Positions 1-38,882 of a stretch of 39,878 bases of DNA are shown here, piece after piece; the stretch's first letter is position 1, and each line of letters opens with the position of its first letter. Both the position numbers and the translations under genes were made by a program. The notes below the pieces were generated by a model, which worked only from the letters and a program-made list of their open reading frames with translations, was not told the DNA's origin and did no database searches. Origin of the DNA: a virus. The stretch lies in IMG/VR virus record IMGVR_UViG_3300047994_000103, positions 1 through 39,878 of that record. One strand, 5' to 3'.

Positions 1-127
1 TCTTCCACAAAAGCCGGAGGTGGCTGCAAATACAGCGGCAGATCGTTTCTGTCTGTTTCTGGAAACCAGACCACTGCTCTGTAGCCTTCGCCTTTTTTCA
101 AATACTTCAAGTTCTCCGCACTGGTAA
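1..127. repeat. Terminal overlap, copy 1 (identical to 39752-39878)
   Basis: Bases 1-127 recur base-for-base as the last 127 bases of the window. Confidence 0.97.
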
Positions 128-689
128 AAGCTACGGGATAATTTTCTATTCCTTCCGACACACCGCGCACCGGCTCCTCCACTTTGGCCTGCGAGGGTGG
201 AGTGGCAGATTGCTCCAAACGCTCACGGGCAGACGCGAGCAAATCTTGAACCTTTGACAGCCCCTCAAAAATCTTCGCGAATGCTTTCTTCTCTTGGTCG
301 GTCATGGGTGCAGAATCTTCCTGCTTCTCAGCAGCCGGCACGCTGGCGGTTGACGGTGGGGAGTTGAGCGTCACACACGTTTTGCAAATGACGCGGCGCT
401 TGTGACCTCTAAAATTACGACCGCAGAAAGAACAGCAGTTTTCGTAGTTACCGTTTTCAAACCTTGCATCATCGGAAAACGAACGCTCTTGATAAGTCGT
501 ATCTCGCAACAGTCGAAATCCTTCCGGCACACCCCCGCCAACGAACGTCTCGTTCGTCTCGGCTTGTGCGTGGCGGGATGCGAAGCCAGCAACAAACCAC
601 CCTTGAGCATCCCGCTTTTCTTCGTCTCCGTATCGGTAGCCGCCTTCGCCAAAGTATTTGTTGAAAGCGTCTAGGGCGTTCAGGTCCAT
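1..689 (-). CDS. Hypothetical zinc-ribbon protein, 5-prime part of a 359-codon gene split by the linearisation point (continues 39751-39361)
   Basis: ATG at 689, 26 nt after the stop of 716-1180. Every codon checked down to base 1 with no stop. Frame is in phase with ORF 39361-39861 through the repeat. CSFC-x12-CKTC motif. Absent from the ORF track because it runs off the edge. Confidence 0.65.
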   Translation of the reverse strand, partial: MDLNALDAFNKYFGEGGYRYGDEEKRDAQGWFVAGFASRHAQAETNETFVGGGVPEGFRLLRDTTYQERSFSDDARFENGNYENCCSFCGRNFRGHKRRVICKTCVTLNSPPSTASVPAAEKQEDSAPMTDQEKKAFAKIFEGLSKVQDLLASARERLEQSATPPSQAKVEEPVRGVSEGIENYPVAFTSAENLKYLKKGEGYRAVVWFPETDRNDLPLYLQPPPAFVE

Positions 690-715
690 TAACGCCTTCT
701 CGTCGATCTTGGTGT

Positions 716-1180
716 TCACTTTGCGGCTCCGGTTGTGAGTGCGGCTGTCGCTGATTCTTCGCATCGGTCCCAGCCAACGCCGTACAGGTCGCCGTGACTT
801 TCTCGTATGTATCGCCAGCCACTACGCATGTCCGTCAACGCAGCGACCAGCTTATCAATCCGCGCCTGCAGCTGCCGGATCGTCTCTGCCTGCGCCGCGT
901 TGGCTGCTAGGGCGGCGGTTAGGTCGGCGGATCGTTTGGTAATTTCAGCCTTGACCTGATGAATCGTGCCGCCCTGCCATCCAAACAAAATGCACAGCTC
1001 TTGCAGATCAGATTGATAGAGCGAAGGCGGAGCAAGATAGAGCGGCATCGCCGCATCTGCATGGGTTGGGAATTCTTCGTGGTATCGCGTCACAGGCGAT
1101 CGCGCAAAACCTGAATACTCCTTCCAACGCCATGCGACAGACATGGGAGCGACGGCTTCGGCGTGTGGTTTGGTGGTCAT
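716..1180 (-). CDS. Hypothetical protein (helical Ala/Gln-rich region, C-terminal WRYIRE motif)
   Basis: 154-aa ORF; ATG 1180 overlaps the upstream stop (ATGA 1177-1180) in a co-directional coupled gene chain. Confidence 0.6.
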   Translation of the reverse strand: MTTKPHAEAVAPMSVAWRWKEYSGFARSPVTRYHEEFPTHADAAMPLYLAPPSLYQSDLQELCILFGWQGGTIHQVKAEITKRSADLTAALAANAAQAETIRQLQARIDKLVAALTDMRSGWRYIRESHGDLYGVGWDRCEESATAALTTGAAK

Positions 1181-1635
1181 GGCTTGCTCCGGGCGATGGC
1201 TGCGTCAATGGCTTCGTCTTCCGTATTCCCGTAAATTATTTCTCTGCGAGAAACACAAACGCACCAATCTCCATGAGGATCATTTGGATCGTAAATGGCG
1301 TGTTCCCCTTTTTCTCTCTGAAAACGCCACCGCTCGGCATCCTTCCTCAGACTCTCCACCTCAACCAGCAGGGAGGCGTGGTCGGGTGGTGCTGCAAATA
1401 GAGTGTGGTCGCCAGCCGGTAGTTTGCTGGCCGTAAAATAAACTTCGCCGTTTGGATAAACCTTTAGCGCAACCGGCACAGCATCCTTAGCCTCTACCAC
1501 GATGGCTCGACCGTCTGCGATGGCTTTCATCCAAGGGCACGTCCAACCGTGATCTTCGATCAATGTTTGGTAAATAGCATGTGCCAGCTCCGGGAACAAC
1601 AACGACACCTCACGCGCCTCTGTTTTGATGCTCAT
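1177..1635 (-). CDS. Hypothetical protein (152 aa; C-terminal RWRFQRE...EAIDAAIA motif)
   Basis: Track ORF 1177-1761 trimmed to ATG 1635, which overlaps the stop of 1632-1892 (ATGA). The discarded 42 codons are Arg/Pro-rich and overlap the neighbour. Confidence 0.6.
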   Translation of the reverse strand: MSIKTEAREVSLLFPELAHAIYQTLIEDHGWTCPWMKAIADGRAIVVEAKDAVPVALKVYPNGEVYFTASKLPAGDHTLFAAPPDHASLLVEVESLRKDAERWRFQREKGEHAIYDPNDPHGDWCVCVSRREIIYGNTEDEAIDAAIARSKP

Positions 1636-1892
1636 TCGCCATACCACACTTCGTGAAAGCGATCCCGCTGGGCGTCCGCAGCATCCGCGCGGCGATCGTG
1701 GTTGTCTTGTTGGGCGAGAAACAAAATATGTTCCTCGAATTGCTCGGTCTCTGGCGGCCAATGACTCACGCCTTCGTCGTCTACCACGTCTCCAATGTTG
1801 ACATCTCCGATGTCGTCAAGCGTGTAGTAGATGATGCCGTCGAAAGAGTGCCGATAGGCTTTGCGCATTTGCTTTTCGTATTCGATTTTCAT
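1632..1892 (-). CDS. Hypothetical acidic protein (86 aa)
   Basis: ORF track; ATG 1892 overlaps the stop of micro-ORF 1889-2026 (ATGA). Confidence 0.6.
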   Translation of the reverse strand: MKIEYEKQMRKAYRHSFDGIIYYTLDDIGDVNIGDVVDDEGVSHWPPETEQFEEHILFLAQQDNHDRRADAADAQRDRFHEVWYGE

Positions 1893-2026
1893 TGCGGGTT
1901 TTCCTGTTTGCGTTGCAAAAGCGGAACTGAGGGGCGAGTGATTTTCAGGGGAGGACGCGCGGCTTGGCGGGTTAATTCGGCGAGTTTGGCGGGACCACTA
2001 AGGCCCTTGGGGATTTTGAATTTCAC
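1889..2026 (-). CDS. Basic 45-aa micro-protein (GTG start)
   Basis: Not in the ORF track. GTG 2026 overlaps the stop of 2023-2268 (GTGA) and is preceded by AAGGAG (2039-2034) at 7 nt. Its TGA overlaps ATG 1892. Product VKFKIPKGLSGPAKLAELTRQAARPPLKITRPSVPLLQRKQENPQ, translated codon by codon. Confidence 0.55.
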   Translation of the reverse strand: MKFKIPKGLSGPAKLAELTRQAARPPLKITRPSVPLLQRKQENPQ

Positions 2027-2268
2027 TCGAATTCTCCTTCGATTGGCTGAGCATCGCGCGCGAACGTGGCGCGAACCCGGATCACTTTTCTACCAAAGGG
2101 CATCTTGAGTGCCAAGTCATTCTTGACCTCGATGAAAACAAGCGGGTCGTTTTCGACGACCGGCGAGTAGAGATTCGGCGACATGCCCTTGTCTATCAGG
2201 CGCACAGGCAGCATGTTGCGAAGATTGTGGTGGGGAAAAATGCGATTCGGGCAGTATTCGGTCAGCAT
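2023..2268 (-). CDS. Hypothetical protein (81 aa)
   Basis: ORF track; ATG 2268 lies about 18 nt downstream of the predicted start of promoter 2293-2321. Confidence 0.6.
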   Translation of the reverse strand: MLTEYCPNRIFPHHNLRNMLPVRLIDKGMSPNLYSPVVENDPLVFIEVKNDLALKMPFGRKVIRVRATFARDAQPIEGEFE

Positions 2269-2292
2269 GGGATTGGTCTCGATTGTGGGAAC

Positions 2293-2321
2293 AGCATATC
2301 ACACAGAATAACACTTGTCAA
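2293..2321 (-). promoter_or_regulatory. sigma70-type promoter with extended -10 (leftward)
   Basis: Minus strand TTGACA (2321-2316), 17-nt spacer, TATGCT (2298-2293), TG at -15/-14. Shares TTGACA-N7-TTCTGTGTGATA with 38883-38911. Confidence 0.6.
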
Positions 2322-2827
2322 GAAGGGTCGGGAAACTTGGGTTCGTTTGTTTCCTCTGCGCGAATGATCTCCATTTGTTTAGCAAAAATGGAAAAATCGT
2401 CCTCGGGATGCAAGCGAGAGACGGCGTGAAATTCGCGGGGCGCGTCGTCGGGGATGATTCCGCCTTGGAAACATTGCTGGCAAAAGTGCGTCGAAGATTC
2501 CGTCACGATCTCATAGCGGGGCAGCGAGGCGGCAACGGCGGCCATTGCATCATCATAGATGATATAGCTGTAGCCGTTTTTGACCTTGCGTCGCAAACCA
2601 AGGTAGGACGGATATATTGTGATTTGACCGCACAGGCATGTGGAGACTTGAACAAACAGAACGAGAGCATCACATACGCTCGGCTTGTCTTCGATGGGAG
2701 TGAATTTGCGTGGCGCGGGTGTTTTGAGAGATCCCAAGCGAGTGATCGACGGAGCTTCTTTTGACATGAAATCGTCGAGAGAAAGACTATCGTTCGGCTT
2801 GACGATTTGCAACGGAGTTGGGTCCAT
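2318..2827 (-). CDS. Hypothetical protein (169 aa, Cys pairs CLC...CQQC)
   Basis: Track ORF 2318-2854 (TTG start) trimmed to ATG 2827 with AGGA 7 nt upstream. Confidence 0.6.
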   Translation of the reverse strand: MDPTPLQIVKPNDSLSLDDFMSKEAPSITRLGSLKTPAPRKFTPIEDKPSVCDALVLFVQVSTCLCGQITIYPSYLGLRRKVKNGYSYIIYDDAMAAVAASLPRYEIVTESSTHFCQQCFQGGIIPDDAPREFHAVSRLHPEDDFSIFAKQMEIIRAEETNEPKFPDPS

Positions 2828-2910
2828 TTTCGTATCCTGTATGTTGATTGACAAACAAACAAAAATGTGCTAGTGTGGCTGTAACCTCTGCCGAAGGCAG
2901 GTATATGGTG

Positions 2911-3150
2911 TTATCGCACAATGGCCTGCCAGTAGCGACCCTGCGGCCCGCAAGAATCGCCGCTTTCCCAGTCCAACCGCTCGACATTGCAATAGGTCGT
3001 TTCGATCTTGCCTGTTACAAAACTTCGAGGCAGACCTGGCCTGACACAGCGCAGCGAGTAGTCCTTGCCGATAACAGCGCAGAATTCGCATTCGAGGCAG
3101 ATTGGCGGCGGCGAGGGGGGCACAGCCGCCCGTTTGTTGAAGGGCCACAT
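2911..3150 (-). CDS. Small Cys-rich hypothetical protein (79 aa)
   Basis: ATG 3150 sits 2 nt after the stop of 3153-3719. Contains ICLECEFC. The competing ORF 2870-3148 is Arg/Leu-rich and less protein-like. Confidence 0.45.
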   Translation of the reverse strand: MWPFNKRAAVPPSPPPICLECEFCAVIGKDYSLRCVRPGLPRSFVTGKIETTYCNVERLDWESGDSCGPQGRYWQAIVR

Positions 3151-3152
3151 GG

Positions 3153-3719
3153 TCAGTGCGCTCCCTTCGCCGGCGGCGTCCAGTGCTTCAACAAGTCAAC
3201 CGTGGCGGCCTGTTCTTCGGTCACTTCGGCGCTGTCATGCTCCTCGGCCTGTTTTGCGGGCTTGAAAACCTTGTGGGTGAAAAAGGCAGCGAGCATCTTT
3301 TCGGCAAGCTCGCAGTAGGTTATTGGACTGGTCATGAAGGACGCGAGGAGCGCGAGGCGGTCCACAACAGATGGCTCCGTGACGGTGGCGTGGCACGGCC
3401 CGTCGAAGTATTCACACCCGCCGCCCAAGAGCGTAGCTCCTGTAACAGCGTGTTTGTGGTGAACGATGAAAAGAAACTGGGGCAGGCTCGGGTTGTCGAG
3501 AACCTTGCGAGTTTCGCTTTCGGAGCCGTCGACCTTAAGGGGATTCGCGGAATCCCGAAGCTCTGCTAGTTTTTCGAGATTAACCCGCAAAGCAAGTTCG
3601 GTAACTGTGTCCTTAAAAGAGACAAACACACCCAAGTATATGTTGCCTTCGTCGTCCTGTCCTGCGTTGTGCTTTATTTCAAGTTCGGATATGGATATTT
3701 TGCTAATCATTTCTTGCAT
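3153..3719 (-). CDS. Hypothetical protein (188 aa)
   Basis: ORF track. Alternative ATG 3710 has AGGA 8 nt upstream and forms an ATGA overlap with the micro-ORF stop. Confidence 0.65.
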   Translation of the reverse strand: MQEMISKISISELEIKHNAGQDDEGNIYLGVFVSFKDTVTELALRVNLEKLAELRDSANPLKVDGSESETRKVLDNPSLPQFLFIVHHKHAVTGATLLGGGCEYFDGPCHATVTEPSVVDRLALLASFMTSPITYCELAEKMLAAFFTHKVFKPAKQAEEHDSAEVTEEQAATVDLLKHWTPPAKGAH

Positions 3720-3862
3720 CCTGTTTGTTGGATTGGGGCTAGTGTTTGTGAAGCATGTTTGATGTCGTTCGGCAGGCCGTAGTGCAGAAGGGCCAGCAAA
3801 GCGAAGATTGCTGCAACATACAAAAGTATGTCTGTTACGGTGAGTTCTGTTTCAAGTTTCAT
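3707..3862 (-). CDS. Possible 51-aa single-pass membrane micro-protein
   Basis: Not in the track. ATG 3862; MKLETELTVTDILLYVAAIFALLALLHYGLPNDIKHASQTLAPIQQTGCKK has one hydrophobic helix. The stop overlaps the next gene start. The SD is weak. Confidence 0.35.
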   Translation of the reverse strand: MKLETELTVTDILLYVAAIFALLALLHYGLPNDIKHASQTLAPIQQTGCKK

Positions 3863-3879
3863 GCCATGAATTCCGAGCC

Positions 3880-3948
3880 AAAAAAGACCCGCAAGATGGG
3901 GGGAACCGAGCGGGTCAACGGTAGGCTAGTCCTCGGGGGTGGACTAGC
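3880..3948 (-). terminator. Tandem-hairpin intrinsic terminator (leftward)
   Basis: Located just after stop 3951 on the minus strand. First stem pairs 3948-3941 with 3932-3925 (8 bp). Second stem is GACCCGC/GCGGGTC (3916-3886), followed by T6 (3885-3880). Confidence 0.6.
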
Positions 3949-3950
3949 TG

Positions 3951-4535
3951 TTACAGGCCAAACGATTCGGCGAGCGAAGGCGCGGCGGCCTTCGGCTTGC
4001 GCGAGCGTTTCGTCGCGTACAGGGCCGCAGTGAGCGGATCGGTCTTGACCTTGGACAGGAACGCCGAACGCTGCTCGTCGCCGGTCTGGGTCGACACGAC
4101 ACCTTTCGCGTCGGTGACCTGCTTGTCGGTCCAGCCGGTGACAGCCGAACGGATGACGGCAACGTCCTTGCCGGTCGCTTCCGCGAAGGCTTCGATCGCG
4201 CTTTCCAACGCGGTGTGCGGCTTCGAGGACTCGCCCGGCAGACGGCGCACGCCATTGGCGAGCAAATCGGCCAGACGCTTCGAGGCGGCCTCATAGGCCG
4301 CGTGTGCGTTGTCGCGGTGCGGGCCATAGGCCGTTACCAGTTCGCGGATTGCGCCCTTTAGCGCAAGCTCCATGACGAGTTCGGCGACGGGCGAGCCCGT
4401 TAGCTGTTCCATGGAAACGGTCAGCGTATGGCCGTGGGCGAATTCCAGCTTGGCGGACGCGGTGTCCATGTCGATCAGGGTCTTGGCGACGGCCTGTTTT
4501 GCAGGGGCCTTCGTTTCGTGGGTTGCTTCGGTCAC
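3951..4535 (-). CDS. Hypothetical protein (194 aa, Lys-rich C-terminus)
   Basis: Track ORF 3951-4592 trimmed to GTG 4535 with GGAG 7 nt upstream. Confidence 0.6.
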   Translation of the reverse strand: MTEATHETKAPAKQAVAKTLIDMDTASAKLEFAHGHTLTVSMEQLTGSPVAELVMELALKGAIRELVTAYGPHRDNAHAAYEAASKRLADLLANGVRRLPGESSKPHTALESAIEAFAEATGKDVAVIRSAVTGWTDKQVTDAKGVVSTQTGDEQRSAFLSKVKTDPLTAALYATKRSRKPKAAAPSLAESFGL

Positions 4536-4600
4536 GTTGATACTCCGGTGGGTTGTTTGGGATAGCAAGGACAAGGTAACACGGGTTAACACTTTTGCAA

Positions 4601-4855
4601 CTACCGTTTATCGGCTTCCAGTGGAGTTTCGGTGCAGATGCGAAGCAACTCCATGGCGAATTCAACGGCGTCATCCTTGTCCATGCCGAAGTAATCGAGG
4701 TGATCGTTGGGGTTGCCTTCATGTATTTGCGGAAAGAACCGCACGAAAACGGTGTTGGGATAGTTGGCTTCGATTGTCGGGAAGCCAATGGATAGACTTG
4801 ATGCAATTTCGTTTCTTACGTCGATATGATGTGTAAAAACATACTGGCGGTTCAT
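4601..4855 (-). CDS. Hypothetical protein (84 aa)
   Basis: ORF track; ATG 4855 overlaps the stop of 4852-5535 (ATGA). Confidence 0.6.
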   Translation of the reverse strand: MNRQYVFTHHIDVRNEIASSLSIGFPTIEANYPNTVFVRFFPQIHEGNPNDHLDYFGMDKDDAVEFAMELLRICTETPLEADKR

Positions 4856-5535
4856 GCCACACCTACCTGCGCTAGCACGCTTTCCAACAACACGCTGGCA
4901 TTGGTGTGCGTGGCGAGCCAGTCGCGGCAGGCGCGGAGCGCGTACCCGCGTCCGAACTTGCTGGACATGTCCTTATATAGAGTGACGGCTTCGGCGATGG
5001 TCGCGGTGGGATCGTCGGTGGGGTCGACCGGGGGCGAAGCGGCTGATTCTGCGGGGGTTTCGATCGCTGGCGTGGGCTCCGCAGGAGGCGCAGGAGGCGC
5101 GAGAACATCGGGCACTAGCCCTGGCTCGCCTGACATCAGGAAAGCGCGTATGGCATCGCCAGTTGGCTCCGGCGGGGCATCCTCGGGCACCGTGGCGGCG
5201 ATGCCGGCCAGCAATTCCATAGCGATCCTGCCCATGGGCATATCTGAACGAGGGCGCAACACGAAGTCGTCGCCCTCGGTGCTGATGGCGTACGATTGTC
5301 GGAACGTTGCGACATCCCGCTTGGCCTGCGCGTGGTCCTTGCTTTCGACCATTTCGACGGCGCGCAAGTATTTATAGAGGGTATATTGGAACTTGCTTGC
5401 AAGGGGCTTGCCATCGGCATCGCGGGCACATGTGATGCGCCGCTCGATGACAGGGACGTTGGGTTGTGACAATCGTTCAACGAGTGATCTAATCTCGAAG
5501 GCGAAAACATCTGGGGATTTAGTTCGGCGACTCAT
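4852..5535 (-). CDS. Hypothetical protein (227 aa, central Pro/Ala-rich linker)
   Basis: ORF track; GGAG upstream of ATG 5535. Confidence 0.65.
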   Translation of the reverse strand: MSRRTKSPDVFAFEIRSLVERLSQPNVPVIERRITCARDADGKPLASKFQYTLYKYLRAVEMVESKDHAQAKRDVATFRQSYAISTEGDDFVLRPRSDMPMGRIAMELLAGIAATVPEDAPPEPTGDAIRAFLMSGEPGLVPDVLAPPAPPAEPTPAIETPAESAASPPVDPTDDPTATIAEAVTLYKDMSSKFGRGYALRACRDWLATHTNASVLLESVLAQVGVA

Positions 5536-5633
5536 GGGGAGGATTCTCCGAGGAATTGTATGTTAATCGTAGACAGCGGCGTATGTTGCCGATATGCTCT
5601 TGACACCCCGCAGGGGTGAGATTGCAAGTCGGA

Positions 5634-5828
5634 TCACGATGACACCCTGATATGGGCGCATCCGTCCTTGCTCATGGTGATGCACCATTTCGCCATGGTG
5701 TAGCCTTCGGCTTTCAAGCGGCGTGCGGCGTCACACAATTCCCACGCAAGCATCTTAAGATTCATGCGCTCGTTTTCGTCCAGCGCGCCACGACCGGGAA
5801 TGAACAGGAGATAGGTTTCGGTAGTCAT
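5634..5828 (-). CDS. Hypothetical protein (64 aa)
   Basis: Track ORF 5634-5990 trimmed to ATG 5828, which overlaps the stop of 5825-6094 (ATGA). Confidence 0.5.
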   Translation of the reverse strand: MTTETYLLFIPGRGALDENERMNLKMLAWELCDAARRLKAEGYTMAKWCITMSKDGCAHIRVSS

Positions 5829-6094
5829 GATGCACCATCTACACGTTTGTTTATGACTTCCGCCCATATAGAAAAAGAAAAAATCTTTTCTCTGATAGAC
5901 TCGCGTTGGATCAAAAAGCGTGTGTGTTGTGCCGAGCGGTAGCGTTGTTCGTCTACTGGGTTTAGCCAAACTAGCAATGGTAACCCCCAAACGGTTAAAC
6001 GATCCTGCATCGAGCGAGTGCTTATTTCACTATCCGTGCCTGATCCACCGACGAATCCTATTTTAATGCACGTTGTGTCTGGCTTTCGTTTCAT
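5825..6094 (-). CDS. Hypothetical protein (89 aa) in an A/T-richer patch
   Basis: Locked between ATGA overlaps at both ends (6091-6094, 5825-5828). About 46 percent GC over 5861-6100 by hand count, against roughly 58 percent in the flanks. Confidence 0.5.
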   Translation of the reverse strand: MKRKPDTTCIKIGFVGGSGTDSEISTRSMQDRLTVWGLPLLVWLNPVDEQRYRSAQHTRFLIQRESIREKIFSFSIWAEVINKRVDGAS

Positions 6095-6303
6095 TGTGGG
6101 AAATCCTCGTTAGGTGTGCCTGCTCGGCCTGTGACAATGTCGAGACAGACGCACGCGAAACAGATATCAGGCAAAGCCGGACAACGGTGGCGACGGAGCG
6201 TGGCGGAGCGAGCGTAGGCGCGACGTTCGCCTTCGCCTAGCTCCCGGGCAACACGGAGCGCGCTTGCGCGCAGCTCCGCTTCTTGTTCGTCTTTGGTCGT
6301 CAT
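6091..6303 (-). CDS. Hypothetical protein (70 aa)
   Basis: ORF track; ATGA overlap at 6300-6303 with the upstream gene. Confidence 0.5.
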   Translation of the reverse strand: MTTKDEQEAELRASALRVARELGEGERRAYARSATLRRHRCPALPDICFACVCLDIVTGRAGTPNEDFPQ

Positions 6304-7187
6304 GCCGCTTCATCCGATCCGAAAACGTGGTCCTCGATGCGCCGCAGTTGGTTAGCTGCCCACGACGCGCAGTCGCCTGCGTTGCAGATTGTAGCTGGCG
6401 CGATGACGGTGAAGGCCTGCGGATCGATGTCTTCGATGTCGATCGGCTCGAGCGGTTTTGCGTGGCCGATCGACTCGCCCGCGACGAAATTTTTCGGCAT
6501 ATGATTCCACGCATAGCAAAAAGAAAAGCAGCGAAAGAACGCGGGGCATGCAGTAGATGCTGCGAGCGTGGCAAGGTCGAAGCCGCCGCCGTAGGATTTT
6601 GTAACGGCGCGGATGCAGGACCGATTCGAGTCAGCGGTCCATACCATGCCGCTAACGATCTGCACGTCATAGCCGCTGTCCGTTAGGGACGATGCGAGCG
6701 CGAGCGCCGCTGCACCGCGCCAGAACATCTCTTGTGCGCCCGTGAAGCAATTAGCGCAAGCGTCCACGCCTATCACAACGCGCGTGGGCGCGAACGTGCG
6801 AGTGCGGTGCATACCGCGCCACGCGATGTCTAGCTGGCCGGACCGCACGCGGTCCATGTTTAACTCGTCGCCTTGATCGGTCCAGCGTGCACGGCGACGA
6901 ACATTACGCGAAAGCGGCATCTCGACGGACGCGATGGCGCTTTCGATTTTCGTTGCGCCTTCAGACCATCCCGTGTCCATTAGATTCCGAATGCGATCGC
7001 CGGACTTGAAGGGGAGCGCGTACCACGTTTCCGCGTCCAAGCCGCTGCCGGGTTCATTCCAATAGCTACGTGCCTGTGCGTGCATCGTGCCAGCGCCCGG
7101 CACATTGGCGATGTCCATGAGGGATTGCGCACTGTCGAACGTCACGCGGCCCTGTTTGCCGTTTACTTCGTATGTTGGGATGCTCAT
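6300..7187 (-). CDS. vWA-like partner of the AAA+ ATPase (CobT/ViaA-like; function tentative)
   Basis: 295-aa ORF coupled (TAATG) to the AAA+ gene. The strand RVVIGVDACANC, a following helix and the strand YDVQIVSG resemble a vWA beta-alpha-beta core. The MIDAS site is degenerate (D-A-C-A-N instead of D-x-S-x-S). Confidence 0.5.
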   Translation of the reverse strand: MSIPTYEVNGKQGRVTFDSAQSLMDIANVPGAGTMHAQARSYWNEPGSGLDAETWYALPFKSGDRIRNLMDTGWSEGATKIESAIASVEMPLSRNVRRRARWTDQGDELNMDRVRSGQLDIAWRGMHRTRTFAPTRVVIGVDACANCFTGAQEMFWRGAAALALASSLTDSGYDVQIVSGMVWTADSNRSCIRAVTKSYGGGFDLATLAASTACPAFFRCFSFCYAWNHMPKNFVAGESIGHAKPLEPIDIEDIDPQAFTVIAPATICNAGDCASWAANQLRRIEDHVFGSDEAA

Positions 7188-8524
7188 TAGGCGCGCTCCC
7201 CTACCTTGGCAAGTTCATCCGTGGTCCAGCCATTCAGCAAGTCCCGCTTAATTTCGGACTGAGGGATTCCGGCACTGCGAGCTAGCAGAGCTTTTTGCAA
7301 CATGCGGGTCGATACGACCCGGCGCAGCTTTGCGGATTCTGCGCTGGCGCGGATGCGTGCAACCCATTCACCAAAGTGCCGTATCTCATCGGGAGATGGT
7401 GCATCGGCAGCCTGAAACGGCGTAGCTGCTTTGTAGGGCATTCCGCACAGCGATGCCTCAAATGCTGGATCATAGGTCATCGTGACGATATACCAACGAT
7501 CCAGCGTTGCCGCGTCCAATTGCGAGCGTCCAACATACTGCGAGCCTGCACCGTTGCCGAACGTATTAGCGGCTGCAATCTGCACGGCCTGCGGATGGCG
7601 ATGAAGGCGTGTACCGCTGACCGGATTGTCGAACGCACCGTTGGCCGTGGCCGCATTCAGCGTCAGCAACATGTTCGCATCGCCTGCGTCGATTTCATCG
7701 TGCAGGAACACGCTCGGACGTTCGTAATTCTGACAAAAGACGCTCGATTGATACTCGAACTTGCCTTGTTCGCCAGTCGGCAATAAACGGCCAAGTAACC
7801 ACGACTCGGATGCGCCGGCGCTATATGACAGGGAATTGAACGGGACATTAAGGGCCTTGGCGATCTGCCCGGCGAGGTGCGTTTTGCCACAACCTGCGGG
7901 CCCAACCAGCATCACGTTCAAACCTACCGAACAGAGACGCAAGACTTTCTCGAACAAGGGATGCGCGCCGTCGATGCGGACATCGGGCAGTTCGTGACGC
8001 TTCAACACAATCTCGCGGGCCGGCACGGTGCCATCGCCACGGGGCGCGGCTTTGGCAATTTCTTCCTGTGCGATCTGCCGCACGCGATCCTCGTTGCAGG
8101 CTTCGCTTGCTGCTTGCTGCGCGATCTGCTGGACGAGGGCATCGATTGCACCTTGCGTGGAAGATTGCGGCTTTGGTGCCGGCATGGGGATGCCTTGGCT
8201 TTGGCCTGCGTCAGCCTGCGGCTTGGACTGCGCGCCGTCCATGAAGCGATCCAAGTCCAGCGGTTCGATTTTAGGCTTGCTCGGAGTCTCGCCCTTGGGC
8301 TCGGTCCGCGTGCCTTGCTTCCATTCGCCCGAGACGAAAATGCGCCACGCTTCGGCGCGCTCGTCATCCGTGTAATTGCTGGCGAGATACTCGCGGAATG
8401 CGGCTGCGGTGTTAGTGCGAGGGTCGCGGTGAAAGTCTCCCGCTTCGCCGTGCTTCGGCGCGTGGTCCTTGAGTGTTTTCCCGAGAGCAAGCATTTGACG
8501 ATATGAGAGTGTTTCGAGATTCAT
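7187..8524 (-). CDS. AAA+ ATPase, MoxR/CobS-like (AAA_5 type) with ~190-aa N-terminal extension
   Basis: Walker A LVGPAGCGKTHL and Walker B VFLHDEIDAG. AAANTFGNGAGSQYVGRSQLDAATLDRW resembles the CobS/MoxR sensor region. Confidence 0.85.
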   Translation of the reverse strand: MNLETLSYRQMLALGKTLKDHAPKHGEAGDFHRDPRTNTAAAFREYLASNYTDDERAEAWRIFVSGEWKQGTRTEPKGETPSKPKIEPLDLDRFMDGAQSKPQADAGQSQGIPMPAPKPQSSTQGAIDALVQQIAQQAASEACNEDRVRQIAQEEIAKAAPRGDGTVPAREIVLKRHELPDVRIDGAHPLFEKVLRLCSVGLNVMLVGPAGCGKTHLAGQIAKALNVPFNSLSYSAGASESWLLGRLLPTGEQGKFEYQSSVFCQNYERPSVFLHDEIDAGDANMLLTLNAATANGAFDNPVSGTRLHRHPQAVQIAAANTFGNGAGSQYVGRSQLDAATLDRWYIVTMTYDPAFEASLCGMPYKAATPFQAADAPSPDEIRHFGEWVARIRASAESAKLRRVVSTRMLQKALLARSAGIPQSEIKRDLLNGWTTDELAKVGERA

Positions 8525-8558
8525 TGGCTGGTTTTCCTGTCGTCTGTTTGAGTGTTGT

Positions 8559-8834
8559 TTAGCTAAACTGATCGTATGCCGAAGGGATCAGCGCGTTGCA
8601 ATGGGCGCACGTCATGTCTGGCCCTTCCCAGTATATTTCGACGCCTGCGCAGCCCCATCCGCTGTCGTCATTGTCCCGCGTTGCGCGTGCGATCAGCTTA
8701 AACTCGGTGCGGGCGCACGTCGTGCAAAGGCACGCACCGTCCGTCATAACTAGAATTAGCGGATAGCCACCGGGCCAAGCGTAGCGGTTGCGTGCGGCCA
8801 GTTTGATGTCGCGGATGATGGTTTGATTTTTCAT
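8559..8834 (-). CDS. Small zinc-ribbon-like hypothetical protein (91 aa)
   Basis: Track ORF 8559-8921 trimmed to ATG 8834 (AGGA upstream). CTTC ... CAHC cysteine pairs. Confidence 0.6.
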   Translation of the reverse strand: MKNQTIIRDIKLAARNRYAWPGGYPLILVMTDGACLCTTCARTEFKLIARATRDNDDSGWGCAGVEIYWEGPDMTCAHCNALIPSAYDQFS

Positions 8835-8850
8835 TGTTCGAGTGTCCTGT

Positions 8851-9033
8851 TTAGTTAGTGAGTCCGCAAGCAGACTCGAATCGCGAACGGTCGAATGCAG
8901 GGTTGTTGCAACGCAGGGCATCCGAAAGCGCCAGCACCGATCCTTTCCATGCTTGCATAGCCTGCGTGTGGACGGTCAGCGGCTTACTGCGAAACATTGC
9001 TTGTGCAATTGTGACGAAATCGCGTCGTGTCAT
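8851..9033 (-). CDS. Hypothetical protein (60 aa), first gene of the leftward block
   Basis: ORF track; AAGGA upstream. The start region is nearly identical to that of 8559-8834. Confidence 0.55.
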   Translation of the reverse strand: MTRRDFVTIAQAMFRSKPLTVHTQAMQAWKGSVLALSDALRCNNPAFDRSRFESACGLTN

Positions 9034-9227
9034 TGTTCGAGTTTCCTTTTACGGTAGTGGCGAAAGGCGGAATGCCTTGGCCTGTGTAGTTTCATCATCC
9101 CGGAACACTGTGCAACACTTTTTTTTCGTCGATCTGCGTAAGCCTATGATTGTGTTGAAACTGTTTTTTGCCTTGTTTGGTGGGAATTCTCCGAGAACGC
9201 AGTTCTCGCGCTTCAAGTCCTGCAAGG

Positions 9228-9482
9228 ACTTGCGACCGCTTGACGCACCGCTTGAGCGACCACTACTTGCGACCGCTAACAAGGTAAAAGTGGCTTGATC
9301 CCCCTTTTCCCCTTTCGAGTGGTATGTCTTCTCAAAAGAAAAAAAAATCAGAGTACAACTGTACACCATTCTGGGGGAAAGGGGGGATGCAAGCGTTTTC
9401 CCCTGCTTAGGGGTGACGCATTGCGGTTAGTCTAGTGGTCGCAGGTATGGTCGCAAACAGGCCTGCGACGCTTTGCGTCGCA
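9228..9482. repeat. Iteron-like field built on TGCGAC(C)
   Basis: ACTTGCGACCGCT occurs twice (9228-9240, 9265-9277). ACCGCTTGA occurs twice (9235-9243, 9247-9255). TGGTCGCA occurs twice (9436-9443, 9448-9455). Palindrome TGCGACGC-ttt-GCGTCGCA at 9464-9482. The hexamer TGCGAC/GTCGCA appears 6 times. Confidence 0.85.
9300..9386. repeat. Inverted C/G-tract repeat flanking an A-tract
   Basis: CCCCCTTTTCCCC (9300-9312) faces GGGGGAAAGGGGGG (9373-9386). Between them lie AAAAGAAAAAAAAA (9334-9347) and GTACA-ac-TGTAC (9353-9364). Confidence 0.8.
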
Positions 9483-9631
9483 CGGGTGCGGCCCTTGTAT
9501 GTCGCGGCAGCATGCGTTCGTTTGCCACGCTTTGTAGCGCCTCTGGCGCTTGTTCGTGGGGCCTTGGTCCAGTGCCCTGCCGGCCTTCGGCCGCGTACCT
9601 GGTAGCGTTACACTTTTGTGACAATCCTGTG

Positions 9632-9651
9632 TATAATAGGCATGGCCTATT
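9632..9651 (+). promoter_or_regulatory. Perfect -10 hexamer overlapped by a 7-bp-arm palindrome (candidate rightward promoter/operator)
   Basis: TATAAT at 9632-9637. AATAGGC-atg-GCCTATT at 9635-9651. The -35 region is poor (TTACAC at 18 nt). Confidence 0.3.
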
Positions 9652-9701
9652 GCCAGAGCCTTTACCTATGGTTTGTCCCTTGACAATGGAGTTGTCCTAT
9701 A

Positions 9702-9729
9702 ACCATAGGTTTTGCCTATTGTATGTCAA
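9702..9729 (-). promoter_or_regulatory. Candidate leftward sigma70 promoter
   Basis: Minus strand TTGACA (9729-9724), 16-nt spacer, TATGGT (9707-9702). The -10 lies in the right arm of the 10-bp inverted repeat ACCTATGGTT (9664-9673) / AACCATAGGT (9701-9710). Confidence 0.3.
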
Positions 9730-9749
9730 CAAACAATAGTCTTTCTCTA

Positions 9750-9830
9750 TTATCCACAAGTTATCAACAGAAATCTGTGGAAAAGCTGTGCACAACCTGT
9801 GGATATCCTGTTACCAACCTGTGGACAACG
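9750..9830. promoter_or_regulatory. DnaA-box cluster / five tandem 11-bp units (candidate replication origin core)
   Basis: TTATCCACA at 9750-9758 and TTATCAACA at 9761-9769. Units tgtggaaaagc, tgtgcacaacc, tgtggatatcc, tgttaccaacc, tgtggacaacg span 9776-9830. On the complement these give TTTTCCACA, ATATCCACA and TTGTCCACA, exactly 22 bp apart. Confidence 0.6.
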
Positions 9831-9911
9831 TCCACCCCTTGCCGCAGGCAATGGGCCCCGCCCCGGATTGGGTAACACGACTTTCGGGAGCGGCAAAGTT
9901 TTGAAACACCA

Positions 9912-9938
9912 AGGACAGTTTGTGTCCTGCGGACACAA
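9912..9938 (+). promoter_or_regulatory. Two overlapping perfect palindromes (operator or alternative leader hairpins)
   Basis: AGGACA-gtttg-TGTCCT at 9912-9928 and TTGTGTCC-tgc-GGACACAA at 9920-9938. A third TTGTGTCC sits at 9981-9988, just before the SD of the first rightward gene. Confidence 0.45.
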
Positions 9939-10007
9939 CTGCTATCACAGCCGTGCGGGCGCTCGCCCGCGTCCCTTTCATTGTGTCCCTGCCCCGGAGC
10001 CTCCCGC

Positions 10008-10364
10008 ATGTCTTTCAACGCATTCGTCCCGCAGGCTTCGCCAGTTGCAGTTGCGGTCACGACCACGCTCTCGGCACCTATCTTGACAGTTCCCTTGAAT
10101 TTGGCAACAGGGGGCGGCTCGTATCGAGTGTACAATGGAGGCGCGGCGGCGGTGGCTTTCGCCCTGTATGCAAATCAAGCTAATGCCACGGCTTCTCCTT
10201 TTGTTTTTCCCGTCGCAGGCAACCAGCCCCAGACAGGAGTCATGGTGGTTGTGATTAATCCGGGCAACACGGAAGTTTTCAATGGTCCGGCGGGTGCTTG
10301 GGTTCGCGCCATTACGGGAACAGGGACTTCCACGCTGTATGTGCAGACTGGCGAGGGCGTCTAA
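10008..10364 (+). CDS. Small beta-rich hypothetical protein (118 aa), first rightward gene
   Basis: Track ORF 9981-10364 trimmed to ATG 10008 with GGAG (9996-9999) 8 nt upstream. Confidence 0.6.
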   Translation: MSFNAFVPQASPVAVAVTTTLSAPILTVPLNLATGGGSYRVYNGGAAAVAFALYANQANATASPFVFPVAGNQPQTGVMVVVINPGNTEVFNGPAGAWVRAITGTGTSTLYVQTGEGV

Positions 10365-11156
10365 ATGGCAAACCATTCGAGTGGGGGCGGTGGCGGAACG
10401 TCTGGGACCGTTACCGGCGCGAGCAATGAAGGCGCTGGCGTTCCTGTCTATGACTCTGCGAACAGCACGGCATCTAACCTGGCGTTTAAGACGCTGGTCC
10501 AAGGCTCAAATACTGTCCTGACAGATGGCGGCGCTTCTGGCGTCACGGTGGGGGTTGCGGCAAGTCCATCGTTCACGTCAATCCCGGCTGCTGGGGCTAT
10601 TGGCGGAACGACGCCGAGCACTGGTGCGTTTACGACTGTTTCTAGCACTGGAAACGCAACGTTAAACTCGGGTTCTGCTGGAACCGTAACTATCACTGGT
10701 GCAACTACAATCCAATCCGGCAGTGCTGCGACTGTAAGCATAAACAACGCTGCAGCAGCGGGTCAGACTTTCATCGGAAGCGGTTCTAACACTGGCGGCG
10801 TAACAATTGGCAATGCCGCCAACACCACGACTCTAAATTCTTCTTCCGTCAACGTCGCCAACACCGTCAACATCACGACTGCCGGAAAGGGCCTGATGCT
10901 GAAGGAAGGCACTAACGGTCGCTCTGGCACAGCGACCTTGGCAGCAGGCACCGTGACTGTCAGCAACACGACGATCACGGCCTTGAGCCGCGTGTTCCTC
11001 ACCAGCAACGGCCTCAATGGTTCGACGGCTATCGGCACGCTAGACGTGACCAAGATCAACGGGACCGGCTTCACGATCAACTCTTACAGTGCGGCGGCGG
11101 CCATTGTACCGACTGACACGCGCATCGTTCAGTATTTGATTACCGAAGGCGGCTAA
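10365..11156 (+). CDS. Fibre-like Gly/Ser/Thr/Asn/Ala-rich protein (263 aa)
   Basis: TAA-ATG abutting the previous gene. Almost no charged residues, and repetitive G-x-T/S-V-T-I type strands as in fibre or adhesin beta-structures. Confidence 0.6.
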   Translation: MANHSSGGGGGTSGTVTGASNEGAGVPVYDSANSTASNLAFKTLVQGSNTVLTDGGASGVTVGVAASPSFTSIPAAGAIGGTTPSTGAFTTVSSTGNATLNSGSAGTVTITGATTIQSGSAATVSINNAAAAGQTFIGSGSNTGGVTIGNAANTTTLNSSSVNVANTVNITTAGKGLMLKEGTNGRSGTATLAAGTVTVSNTTITALSRVFLTSNGLNGSTAIGTLDVTKINGTGFTINSYSAAAAIVPTDTRIVQYLITEGG

Positions 11157-11184
11157 TTGACAATCTGGTATGTTCTGGTATTGT
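11157..11184 (+). promoter_or_regulatory. Candidate sigma70 promoter immediately after the fibre-like gene stop
   Basis: TTGACA (11157-11162), 16-nt spacer, TATTGT (11179-11184). Confidence 0.45.
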
Positions 11185-31711: not shown

Positions 31712-32899
31712 TTATTTTGTTGCTAGGAAGAAAGTGCCGTCCGCGTAGGTTTTCTGCGTGACGAGTCCAGTTCGACAAGCACTCTTGACGACTTCCTCGA
31801 ACCGAGTCGCCGTCATAAAACGAACAAATGGTTTATAGGCGTCCGCGTAGCTGATTTTCTTTTCCCTCCCGACGAGATTTATAAAATTCTCGATGGCGCG
31901 TGTGTCGTCGGAAAGTCCGATGTGACCGAAGACCTTGGGCATGTCAGTTTCTGCGGCATCCAGCATGGATTTAGCGGTTTCTAACGTTTCAAGAGTGATG
32001 ATTTTGGAATCGCCCTCCGCCGCACTTAGAATCATCGCTAGTTTATGCAAATGGGTTTGTTTGCGCGCAAAGTAGCCTTGAATGTTGTGGTCGCCCTTGT
32101 CGGTGTTATCGTTGTGTTCGGCATACCACGCTTCACCCCATGCGATTGCTTGACGAGTAAGCGAGAATTCCCCTTCAAGCTGTGAGATTGAAAGTAAATC
32201 TTCAACAAGTCGGGGAGCCATTTCTCGTATTTCGGCCGCCCCCGCATGGTAGCCCGGATATGCCATGTAGTGACGTTTCTTTTCCCCATAGACAAACACG
32301 CACCGGGAAGTAAAGCCGCCTCCGATCATATATTGCGGAAACGTGCCACTGATCCATTCGGGAGTAGTACAGCCGAGAATGTTGATCCATGGATTTACGA
32401 TAGATTCATTCCCCATGGTTTTTGTGACCTTCGTCACTTCGCCTCGCCGGCAATCCCATAAATTTACGAGCATGTCGACCATTTGCGTGTCTTGCGGATT
32501 GATGAGATTCCCAAGCTCGCTGGACACGATTGTCATCGCGGACATCTCATCTAGCGTGCCGTCGGCGCGTTCAATAACTGACCGACAGCCCTCGAACGAC
32601 TTAACAAGCGCCTGCCATGTCACCGAGTGTGGGCCGAAAAAAATCTCTGGCAACTGCTTCAAAAGGTCCATTCCAATCGATGCCGTGGTCGACTTCGAGA
32701 CGATCCCGGGCGGAGCAACAAACACAATATAGAAGTTAGGAACCCAATCGAAGTGCCCCATCGAGATTTGGCACCGCCGCCGCATCGCGCCCGCGATGAT
32801 GCTTACTCCGGTCCAGAAGTGGAATTTGTCCGGCGACTCGCTCAACGACGAATACTCCATGTAGGCTCTGAGCAAGTTCGGGTAGTTACGTTTGCTCAA
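31712..32899 (-). CDS. DUF3987-like replication ATPase (putative helicase)
   Basis: 395 aa; TTG start with GGAG 7 nt upstream. P-loop-like VAPPGIVSKST. SELGNL ... LWDCRRGE ... GGGFTSRCVF pattern as in DUF3987 primase-associated ATPases. Confidence 0.5.
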   Translation of the reverse strand: MSKRNYPNLLRAYMEYSSLSESPDKFHFWTGVSIIAGAMRRRCQISMGHFDWVPNFYIVFVAPPGIVSKSTTASIGMDLLKQLPEIFFGPHSVTWQALVKSFEGCRSVIERADGTLDEMSAMTIVSSELGNLINPQDTQMVDMLVNLWDCRRGEVTKVTKTMGNESIVNPWINILGCTTPEWISGTFPQYMIGGGFTSRCVFVYGEKKRHYMAYPGYHAGAAEIREMAPRLVEDLLSISQLEGEFSLTRQAIAWGEAWYAEHNDNTDKGDHNIQGYFARKQTHLHKLAMILSAAEGDSKIITLETLETAKSMLDAAETDMPKVFGHIGLSDDTRAIENFINLVGREKKISYADAYKPFVRFMTATRFEEVVKSACRTGLVTQKTYADGTFFLATK

Positions 32900-35300: not shown

Positions 35301-35601
35301 AAATTGTTCCTCGAAAATTGCAAGGTTTAGTCGAACGCAATTCTACTTCGCGCACCAATAACTCATCTGGAATACCAAACTCCCTGTATGCTAGATCAAT
35401 TGTTGAAAGCGACCCATTCCCACATGCAGCACAACAATGCGTTACAGAGGTGTAGCCGGAGAACCTTTCGGGTTCCATCCACATCCATGCTTCTCCACAA
35501 AGATGACAAACAAAAACAACCCCCGGAGGCACCACATCAGAAAAATATTCCAGCCATGATACCGCCGGGGGGTGTCCCGAGATGCGAATCGTTTGTTGCA
35601 T
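35293..35601 (-). CDS. Small zinc-ribbon protein (102 aa)
   Basis: Track ORF 35293-35637 trimmed to ATG 35601 (TAATG overlap). CHLC ... CAAC cysteine pairs. Overlaps the polymerase start by 8 nt. Confidence 0.55.
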   Translation of the reverse strand: MQQTIRISGHPPAVSWLEYFSDVVPPGVVFVCHLCGEAWMWMEPERFSGYTSVTHCCAACGNGSLSTIDLAYREFGIPDELLVREVELRSTKPCNFRGTIYA

Positions 35602-35855
35602 TACTTCTTGCGTTTTACCAAGGGTGCAGCAGGACAAGTTGAGGAAAACAGCTTTTGGTGGTAGGCGTCACGTTGAGCCTGATCGATCAAAAGGGCTTCG
35701 ACTTTGGCGTTCAGCAAATTGACAACTTCCAAAGCCCCGAGTTTGCTAATGGCGAATTCAACAGCGGCAGCAAGGTCGCTTTGCGCGCCGATGCGTTGGG
35801 TTCGGACGTTTTCACCAAGAGATGCGGCGCTTGCCGCGAGACGTTTGTTAGACAC
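35601..35855 (-). CDS. Hypothetical protein (84 aa)
   Basis: ORF track; GTG start 19 nt downstream of the tRNA 3-prime end. Confidence 0.5.
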   Translation of the reverse strand: MSNKRLAASAASLGENVRTQRIGAQSDLAAAVEFAISKLGALEVVNLLNAKVEALLIDQAQRDAYHQKLFSSTCPAAPLVKRKK

Positions 35856-35874
35856 AGTAATCTCAGTTTGAAAG

Positions 35875-35948
35875 TGGATCGCGGTCAGGGACTCGAACCC
35901 CGATTGACAGGATCAAAACCTGTAGTTCTGCCATTGAACTAACCGCGA
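35875..35948 (-). tRNA. tRNA-Gln (anticodon UUG), CCA encoded
   Basis: Folded by hand as TCGCGGT TA GTTC AATGGCA GAAC T ACAGG TTTTGAT CCTGT CAAT CGGGG TTCGAGT CCCTG ACCGCGA T CCA. All four stems pair. U8, A14, GG, U33, A37 and T-loop TTCGA are present. U1-A72 as in bacterial tRNA-Gln. Confidence 0.9.
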
Positions 35949-36050
35949 AAATTCCTGAAAAGTGGGGAGTACGAGGTTCCCAGGCTTTGCCCTAGGTGGT
36001 CTAGGGTTCCCGAACAAGCATTTAACGTCTCGCCTGTAAGACATATCGCA

Positions 36051-36530: not shown

Positions 36531-36598
36531 TGTAATGCTCCTGTTGTGTTGCGAAAAATTGTTTGTTGCGTTTGGGTCGAGGGTGAGAGTTGTCTAAG

Positions 36599-37423: not shown

Positions 37424-37447
37424 GATATGCTCGGGTGGAGTGAAGGG

Positions 37448-38857: not shown

Positions 38858-38882
38858 GGGGTATAGCTCCTGTTATGTGAAC

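Follow-up and report, generated by a model that had tools for sequence, protein, structure and literature searches.

Oppositely oriented iterons flanking an AT-rich region form the replication origins of the pathogenicity islands found in Staphylococcus aureus (SaPIs), where they are read by the C-terminal winged-helix domain of a self-loading helicase; some self-loading helicases of such elements are of the MCM type (PMC9371898). Short hairpins act as signals in other systems. The early promoters of N4 are hairpins with 5-7-bp stems and 3-nt loops, extruded at physiological supercoiling and characterized by a GC-rich heptamer, a purine at the loop centre and a fixed start site (PMC4496689), and CCGAAGG is the mini-hairpin core of ssiA in RSF1010 (PMC13037366). 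The subject of the present analysis is a palindrome-rich non-coding region, hereafter the hub, at positions 9034-10007 of a viral genome from IMG/VR (record IMGVR_UViG_3300047994_000103; the window is the whole stretch of 39,878 nt that was analysed). With a probability of roughly 0.5, this region would be a replication origin combined with an early/late promoter switch. That reading is built on the position of the hub, on the enrichment of motifs and the low duplex stability found in it, and on the predicted fold of a phage-encoded helicase. Regarded in this way, the hub belongs to a known class of element, and its palindrome signature is unusual.

On the circular map, both gene blocks of the phage begin at the hub, which is the single divergent junction and by far the longest intergenic gap of the genome. 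The first rightward gene starts at ATG 10008, which corrects the initial annotation. The claim made there that the region holds no credible open reading frame (ORF) is borne out: codon-usage log-odds of the hub ORFs range from -0.48 to +0.03, compared with 0.17-0.46 for the long genes of the phage, none of these ORFs has a Pfam or PHROG match, and public gene calls place nothing in the interval.

Palindromes with a 3-nt centre

The initial annotation had listed eight perfect inverted repeats with a 3-nt centre in the hub (palindromes 1-8 in Table 1) and two outside it, at 5604-5618 and 2888-2900. All are indeed perfect, have the 3-nt centre and lie exactly where they were placed. A ninth hub palindrome with 5-bp arms, at 9839-9851, had been overlooked. 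The arms of the nine are 5-8 bp long, and the loops read, from left to right, gca, gca, ttt, tct, ttc, atg, aac, gca and tgc.

When 9034-10007 was shuffled 5000 times with dinucleotides preserved, palindromes with arms of at least 6 bp and a spacer of 3 numbered 0.25 ± 0.51, close to the chance expectation of about 0.24 given earlier and far below the 7 observed, a count reached in 0 of 5000 shuffles. With arms of at least 7 bp there are 5 (0.06 expected from the shuffles), and with arms of at least 8 bp there are 3 (0.01 expected); spacers 2 and 4 give 1 each (0.26 expected). Even the maximum over spacers 0-8 never reached 7 in the shuffles. If each palindrome is counted only at its innermost spacer, the hub has 7 at spacer 3, 1 each at spacers 2, 5 and 8 (the chance level) and none at the other spacers from 0 to 8, so that the excess is specific to the 3-nt spacer. 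The densest 975-bp interval in 764 kb from 85 other phage loci holds 4 palindromes of spacer 3, or 6 of any spacer from 0 to 6. The palindrome packing of the hub is thus real, statistically strong and specifically a 3-nt phenomenon.

Table 1. Features of the hub, the two outlying palindromes and the predicted helicase
Feature	Position	Strand	Remarks
Non-coding divergent hub	9034-10007 (974 bp)		between leftward ATG 9033 and rightward ATG 10008
Imperfect palindrome of ~300 bp	9186-9490		comprises iteron sets, long hairpin and palindromes 1-3
Palindrome 1, CGAGAAC-gca-GTTCTCG	9192-9208		without related site elsewhere
Palindrome 2, CAAGTCCT-gca-AGGACTTG	9214-9232		right arm overlaps 13-nt repeat ACTTGCGACCGCT
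Left iteron set, ACTTGCGACCGCT x2 (9228, 9265) and GCGACC at 9256	9228-9277	+	all forward
Long hairpin, arms CCCCCTTTTCCCC / GGGGGAAAGGGGG, A-rich tip	9293-9396		9323-9362 is the genome's fourth least stable 40-mer
Right iteron set, GGTCGC x2 (9437, 9449)	9437-9456	-	orientation opposite to left set
Palindrome 3, TGCGACGC-ttt-GCGTCGCA	9464-9482		inverted pair of iteron core TGCGAC
Palindrome 4, AGCGCC-tct-GGCGCT	9536-9550		in GC-rich spacer segment
Palindrome 5, CGGCC-ttc-GGCCG	9581-9593		minus strand CCGAAGG, a mini-hairpin core
Sigma70-like promoter candidate, TACACT-17-TATAAT	9609-9637	+	rightward
DnaA box TTATACACA	9628-9636	-	within rightward promoter candidate 9609-9637
Palindrome 6, AATAGGC-atg-GCCTATT	9635-9651		operator-like site O1
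Inverted repeat ACCTATGGTT / AACCATAGGT, 27 nt between arms	9664-9710		between the two facing promoter candidates
Sigma70-like promoter, TTGACA-16-TATGGT	9702-9729	-	genome's ninth best score; sole strong leftward candidate of the hub
O2, CATAGGTTTTGCCTATT	9704-9720		operator-like; 2 mismatches to palindrome 6; over -10 and spacer of leftward promoter
O3, AATAGTCTTTCTCTATT	9735-9751		operator-like; 3 mismatches to palindrome 6; overlaps weaker rightward candidate TCAACA-16-TATTAT (9726-9753)
AT-rich segment, candidate DNA-unwinding element	9735-9774		genome's second least stable 40-mer
DnaA-box-like 9-mers	9750(+), 9761(+), 9776(-), 9798(-), 9820(-)		within 9750-9829
Five 11-bp tandem repeats AAnCTGTGGAnAA	9772-9829		
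Palindrome 7, GTGGAC-aac-GTCCAC	9821-9835		left arm belongs to last 11-bp repeat / DnaA-like box
Ninth palindrome, TTGCC-gca-GGCAA	9839-9851		without related site anywhere
Palindrome 8, TTGTGTCC-tgc-GGACACAA	9920-9938		third TTGTGTCC half-site at 9981-9988
Terminator-like hairpin GTGCGGGC-gctc-GCCCGCGT, then CCCTTTCATT	9953-9972	+	36 nt upstream of first rightward gene
Intergenic palindrome CACCCC-gca-GGGGTG	5604-5618		overlaps plus-strand TTGACA
Intergenic palindrome CTGCC-gaa-GGCAG	2888-2900		12 nt downstream of plus-strand TTGACA-17-TAGTGT
DUF3987 protein, predicted MCM-like AAA+ helicase with C-terminal winged-helix-like domain	31712-32899	-	candidate iteron-binding initiator

The signature is not confined to the hub. 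Similar elements had been noted in other intergenic places, which holds for 5604-5618 and 2888-2900; however, there are 21 palindromes with spacer 3 and arms of at least 6 bp outside the hub, and these lie mostly in genes. Counted at the innermost spacer only, spacer 3 occurs 18 times outside the hub, compared with 8.4 ± 2.5 expected, a number reached in 0 of 150 shuffles. The other spacers are near expectation there, and spacer 0 is depleted (5 vs. 10.8). Other phage DNA (953 kb) has its greatest hairpin excess at loops of 4-5 nt, with only a 1.24-fold excess at 3 nt. The excess in the present phage suggests either that such hairpins are used throughout its genome or that mutation is biased, for example by template switching at quasi-palindromes.

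Could the palindromes have accumulated without any function? Template switching by the phage polymerase might perfect short-loop palindromes, which would then build up as neutral by-products wherever coding constraint is missing. The excess in the mostly genic remainder would fit this idea, as would its restriction to this phage as opposed to its relatives, the perfection of the stems and the fact that several palindromes have no related site. On the other hand, template switching predicts 4-nt loops as frequently as 3-nt loops, which is not seen; several of the palindromes coincide with repeated motifs; and a compact phage would not retain 1 kb of unconstrained DNA. Moreover, the density of spacer-3 palindromes is 7.2 per kb in the hub but only about 0.5 per kb elsewhere, with only 1-2 in all the remaining intergenic DNA, so that a mutational process is insufficient on its own. 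A purely neutral origin is therefore improbable. If a mutational bias of the phage polymerase were nevertheless the cause, the 3-nt signature would be a visible footprint of template switching.

Half-sites and shared geometry

Because the stem sequences differ, it had been proposed that geometry, rather than any binding motif, is what the palindromes have in common. This is weakened by the recurrence of half-sites: three of the four genomic copies of TTGTGTCC, three of the seven of AATAGGC and six of the 31 of TGCGAC / GTCGCA are found in the hub, and palindromes 2, 3, 6, 7 and 8 are assembled from, or run into, half-sites that recur there. For four or five of the palindromes a motif is thus part of the picture; palindromes 1, 4 and 5 and the one at 9839-9851 have no related site.

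Origin-like features

The hub falls into four segments: A (9186-9490), B (9490-9600), C (9600-9835) and D (9835-10007). In segment A, GCGACC occurs three times in forward orientation (9232, 9256 and 9269) and twice reversed, as GGTCGC (9437 and 9449), and the two sets flank the AT-rich 9323-9362. Palindrome 3 supplies a further inverted pair, of the shorter core TGCGAC, which also flanks the AT-rich centre. By analogy, segment A has a SaPI-type layout, and an interaction of the helicase with the iterons is suggested on the same basis. The fold z-score of 9186-9490 is -10.2 for the plus strand and -8.3 for the minus strand.

Segment B, with 65-75% G+C, holds palindromes 4 and 5 and separates segment A from segment C, which is AT-rich. 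The window contains 14 9-mers with at most one mismatch to the DnaA box TTATCCACA, compared with 6.5 expected. Six of these are crowded into 201 bp (9628-9828), where about 0.03 would be expected, and the hub accounts for three of the window's five strict TTWTNCACA matches. Four of the DnaA-like boxes belong to the five-copy array of 11-bp tandem repeats, and the array is adjoined by 9735-9774, the second least stable 40-mer of the genome. Together with 9323-9362, this places two of the genome's four least stable 40-mers in the hub. Segment D is again GC-rich and contains the ninth palindrome, palindrome 8, the third TTGTGTCC half-site and the terminator-like hairpin.

Another repeat, GACATACAA / ACATACA, recurs on the minus strand at 9322, 9497 and 9721 in the hub, and also at 5560 and 2840, upstream of two leftward genes; GACATAC has six copies in the genome, three of them within the hub.

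The predicted helicase

The candidate initiator is the DUF3987 protein of the leftward block. Its sequence gave no significant match in the PDB, and a fold search was therefore used. The AlphaFold model (pLDDT, the predicted local distance difference test score, of 90.5 from a 44-sequence alignment) has MCM helicase subunits as its best structural matches in the PDB, with E values down to 1.8e-10. The last 65 residues follow an H-E-H-H-E-E pattern, which, from the secondary structure, fits a winged helix. The prediction is thus of an AAA+ helicase that is MCM-like and has a winged-helix-like C-terminus. Its PHROGs label is 'DNA primase'; no separate primase domain was recognised anywhere in the genome.

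Promoters and operator-like sites

A perfect TTGACA with a good -10 element, on the correct strand, is present in four intergenic places: leftward at 2321, at 38911 and at 9729 (running to 9702), and rightward at 11157. These promoters show that the phage uses the host sigma70 polymerase. The genome's two top sigma70-like scores belong to 2293-2321 (-) and 38883-38911 (-), upstream of leftward genes, which are near-identical copies of TTGACA-N7-TTCTGTGTGATAyGmTGTTC; a looser copy stands at 11157-11184 (+), upstream of the putative small terminase gene. A scan of IMG/VR with TTGACA-N7-TTCTGTGTGATA returned 21 loci, none of them related by protein or DNA. Both outlying palindromes adjoin a TTGACA on the plus strand, antisense to the leftward genes around them, and these sites, at 2848-2900 and 5600-5618, could be antisense promoters.

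In the hub, the leftward promoter 9729-9702 faces the rightward candidate at 9609-9637. Copies of palindrome 6 are placed over the -10 element of the rightward candidate, over the -10 element and spacer of the leftward promoter, and just upstream of the leftward -35 element. These three sites match the operator-array pattern of a phage switch and are operator-like; among the palindromes, only palindrome 6 shows this arrangement of three related dyad sites over promoter elements.

Transcription from these promoters raises the question of whether the palindromes are RNA structures, as the initial annotation had proposed in offering a structured leader or non-coding RNA as an alternative. The leftward promoter would then produce a leader or non-coding RNA of about 660 nt, and rightward transcription a leader of about 200-300 nt ending at the 9953-9972 hairpin, with the palindromes as stem-loops serving RNA stabilisation, attenuation or antitermination, or as part of a primer RNA for the family A polymerase. 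Antitermination is familiar from lambda PR'-tR', and primer RNA from ColE1 RNA II and the T7 primary origin. The first leftward gene is preceded, at a distance of about 670 nt, by the sole strong leftward promoter, and the folding of the hub greatly surpasses that of shuffles on either strand (z-scores of -6.7 and -7.6). The plus-strand RNA of 9186-9490 is the more stable by 21 kcal/mol and has 9 G-U pairs as against 6 on the minus strand, although this strand bias in the giant hairpin is not decisive. In addition, a terminator-like hairpin stands directly before the first late gene, and the G-runs at 9300-9312 and 9373-9386 could favour persistent RNA-DNA hybrids. However, all nine hub stems are purely Watson-Crick paired with sharp ends, without a G-U pair or bulge, and are therefore equally good on either strand, which argues for a property of the DNA rather than for an evolved RNA structure. 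None of the nine combines a GC-rich stem with a T/U tract behind it; the hairpin with a 4-nt loop at 9953-9972 alone resembles a terminator in this way, and weakly so. The palindromes stand on both sides of the promoters, the hairpins of other phages (in the 953 kb above) favour loops of 4-5 nt and only weakly 3 nt, and the hub has no Rfam family: a search of Rfam 15 returned only two chance-level matches to microRNA precursors in the hub, and only a tRNA-Gln in the window as a whole. An RNA explanation of the palindromes is for these reasons rather unlikely.

The layout at 9953-9972 resembles a promoter-leader-terminator arrangement under antitermination.

Possible hairpin signals in single-stranded DNA

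Alternatively, the palindromes might act in single-stranded DNA, as mini-hairpins formed when the origin is unwound or when supercoiling extrudes them, which would resist single-stranded DNA-binding protein and mark the entry of primase or polymerase, a role proposed for the origin hairpin of phage G4, for ssiA/ssiB of RSF1010 and for the N4 early promoters. A related proposal is that the hairpins, diverse in sequence but alike in geometry (perfect stem of 5-8 bp, loop of 3 nt, C-G closing pair in most) and enriched about 29-fold in the hub and about twofold in the remainder of the genome, are recognised by shape as signals for the phage replication machinery, namely the MCM-like helicase and the fusion of a uracil-DNA-glycosylase-like domain to a family A polymerase (UDG-PolA). 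Every one of the nine palindromes has a loop of exactly 3 nt, the minimum, the stem sequences differ, the palindromes flank both of the easily melted segments, and the excess is at spacer 3 as opposed to the peak at 4-5 nt in other phages. Palindromes 1, 5 and 8 and the one at 9839-9851 (four of nine) have a cGNAg core on one strand, and CCGAAGG, the core of RSF1010 ssiA, is read on the minus strand of palindrome 5 and the plus strand of 2888-2900. The N4 early promoter hairpins, of similar geometry, extrude at physiological supercoiling.

The argument from GNA loops and C-G closure, on which the initial annotation had leaned, is suggestive but not significant when the genome's own palindromes and its surplus of CGCAG are taken as the background. 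A GNA loop is present on one strand in five of the nine hub palindromes, but GNA or TNC is also found in five of the 21 outside, 11 of which are closed by C. CGCAG is commoner than expected genome-wide (152 vs. 113 ± 10), as is CCGCAGG (15 vs. 5.8 ± 2.2). C-G closure together with GNA loops was accordingly rejected as a special signal. Furthermore, no pattern relates the strand bearing GNA to the hub, neither stem nor flanking bases are common to the palindromes, four or five of them are built from recurring half-sites, and the signature is missing in distant relatives.

The proteins that would read such signals were also sought. No RNA polymerase came up when the virion and early proteins were scanned with Pfam and PHROG, and no polymerase family was found among the virion proteins; N4-type hairpin promoters, whose stem and loop geometry is seen here, were rejected for the lack of a virion RNA polymerase and of conserved stem or loop bases. 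Likewise, no RepB'-type primase family of Pfam was found among about 40 scanned proteins, and an RSF1010-type ssi signal, though its CCGAAGG core is there, was rejected because there is neither a RepB' primase nor a pair of related signals of about 40 nt on opposite strands. These rejections concern membership of the two families, not a hairpin-signal mechanism as such; action as single-stranded signals appears unlikely, and recognition by shape alone slightly less probable still.

The hub as a proposed origin and switch

The suggestion of the initial annotation that the region is a structured origin or switch is supported: the divergent junction, the DnaA-like cluster, the iterons, the unstable segments and the promoter- and operator-like sites all fit such a function. 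How might it work? Most of the palindromes, and at least four or five of them (2, 3, 6, 7 and 8), would be duplex-DNA sites with head-to-head half-sites, and the proteins that bind these might also bind single or direct copies of the half-sites nearby. The MCM-like helicase, with its winged-helix-like C-terminus, would recognise the oppositely pointing GCGACC iterons around 9323-9362 and would load there in the manner of the self-loading helicases of mobile elements. The host DnaA, presumably, would bind the six-box cluster and the 11-bp array (9628-9829), beside the meltable 9735-9774, and a dimeric regulator would bind AATAGGC-N3-GCCTATT and its two degenerate copies over the sigma70-like promoters. 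Once the origin is unwound, each palindrome may fold into a 3-nt-loop hairpin on both strands, and such hairpins could help to hold the strands apart or mark the starts of priming.

Several points weigh against this model. It does not account for the uniform, exact 3-bp centre, and it would be an odd coincidence if four or more different proteins all used sites with the same centre. Binding sites of an origin or operator cannot explain the twofold spacer-3 excess in the mostly coding remainder of the genome. To our knowledge, natural operators are rarely perfect, yet all nine palindromes are, and palindromes 1, 4 and 5 and 9839-9851 have no related site anywhere. The helicase gene (31712-32899) lies 17-22 kb from the hub and is not adjacent to it, whereas in SaPIs the origin directly follows the helicase gene. 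No helix-turn-helix (HTH) repressor or Cro-like gene was identified by Pfam and PHROG scans; no HTH family was found in the small flanking proteins, with only a weak match to DUF7317 and, further away, a weak match to an IS481-type HTH. Clusters of DnaA boxes were not found in the hubs of relatives.

The phage and its relatives

Bases 1-127 of the window are repeated exactly at 39752-39878, so that the assembly is circular with 39,751 unique bases, a result compatible either with permuted, headful-packaged DNA or with terminal repeats. By its gene content the virus is a tailed phage. The rightward block, from 10008 to about 31,700, encodes the large terminase, a P22-like portal, a scaffold, a P22-like coat, a head-closure protein and ejection proteins. 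The leftward block (1-9033 and 31712-39878) comprises small early ORFans, an AAA_5/DUF7192 pair, a Sak4-like annealing protein, a PD-(D/E)XK nuclease, the UDG-PolA fusion and the DUF3987 protein. UDG-PolA, at 32886-35300 (-), joins a uracil-DNA-glycosylase-like domain, a 3'-5' exonuclease and a family A polymerase, and at 804 aa is the largest ORF of the genome. A tRNA-Gln with anticodon UUG at 35875-35948 (-), in the replication block, is the sole Rfam or ARAGORN match in the genome. Since no integrase is present, the phage is probably virulent.

The lineage has no close public relative. The terminase is at most 37% identical to that of any GenBank phage, and a blastn search with 8500-10600 against 50,697 phage records returned nothing. 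The genes nearest to the hub (flanking genes of 60 and 118 aa, with the AAA_5 gene beyond) form singleton clusters. The 118-aa protein has no homologue among 5.8 billion proteins, the best homologue of the AAA_5 neighbour has 59% identity, and scans of IMG/VR with both found no relative; the second contig that carries the hub region is identical to the window.

At greater distances, the AAA_5 homologues (at most 59% identity) likewise head a leftward block beside a divergent gap, of 235-1667 bp, and these gaps are rich in direct and inverted repeats specific to each hub. What is conserved, in kind, is therefore an origin or control hub rich in repeats. The palindromes of these hubs have spacers of 0, 2, 4 or 6, with a single spacer-3 palindrome with arms of at least 6 bp (in locus L086). 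Three complete GenBank genomes, those of MW202489, Microcystis phage Mel-JY34 and Vibrio phage VS-ABTNL-3, have a replication module 40-50% identical to that of the present phage, and the same two-block architecture. None of the three has the spacer-3 excess (5 vs. 10.6, 10 vs. 11.7 and 13 vs. 9.7 expected, respectively), and Mel-JY34 has two spacer-3 palindromes in its 397-bp hub. The initial annotation had looked to related phages for preserved stems; the 3-nt signature is missing from the distant relatives compared and, judged from these sequences, is particular to this phage at the distances available.

Hairpins of G-runs and C-runs resembling the CCCCCTTTTCCCC / GGGGGAAAGGGGG arms of the window (9300-9386) occur upstream of homologues of a 120-aa Cys-rich protein (8559-8921), at 5546-5567 in locus L031 and at 4395-4417 and 4652-4673 in locus L032. 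At the end of the virion block, Mel-JY34 (L109, 17795-23479) and VS-ABTNL-3 (L110, 17815-23187) carry a gene of about 1800-1900 aa that has no counterpart in the window.

Comparison with known systems

It is very rare for origins and early/late switches to be mapped in uncultivated phages; here a candidate for both could be read from the genome sequence alone, and the features of the hub provide concrete targets for origin cloning, footprinting and transcript mapping. If the shape of the hairpins were recognised, the few mini-hairpin signals known, those of N4, G4 and RSF1010, would gain a counterpart in a double-stranded DNA phage transcribed by the host RNA polymerase.

To these mini-hairpin signals (RSF1010 ssiA/ssiB, the G4 origin hairpin and the N4 early promoters), the hub palindromes are similar in their 5-8-bp stems, 3-nt loops, C-G closure and origin or early position, with GAA or GCA loops in about half. 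They differ in having nine different sequences, no common recognition bases and no strand pattern.

For operators, the comparison is with the arrays of the lambda/P22 type and with the face-to-face promoter switches of phages 186 and P2. The hub differs from these in that no repressor or Cro-like gene was identified and no integrase is present, and only palindrome 6 fits. As in these phages, one perfect and two degenerate 17-bp dyad sites cover the -10, spacer and -35 elements of opposed promoters.

Origins with DnaA boxes and iterons are known from oriC, P1 oriR and the oriV of RK2 or pSC101. The hub resembles these in its DnaA-box cluster, its 11-bp tandem array and its AT-rich segment followed by a GC-rich one. 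Unlike in these origins, however, its boxes and 11-bp repeats are the same sequences, and there is no plasmid-type Rep gene.

Finally, the hub differs from the SaPI origins in its GCGACC iteron cores and distant helicase gene, and in that the site is set within an imperfect palindrome of about 300 bp and flanked by unrelated perfect palindromes. What it shares with the SaPI Rep origins and with Cch of the staphylococcal cassette chromosome mec (SCCmec) is a set of iterons opposed around an AT-rich centre, at least two on each side, and a phage-encoded AAA+ helicase with a putative C-terminal winged helix, which is MCM-like by its predicted fold.

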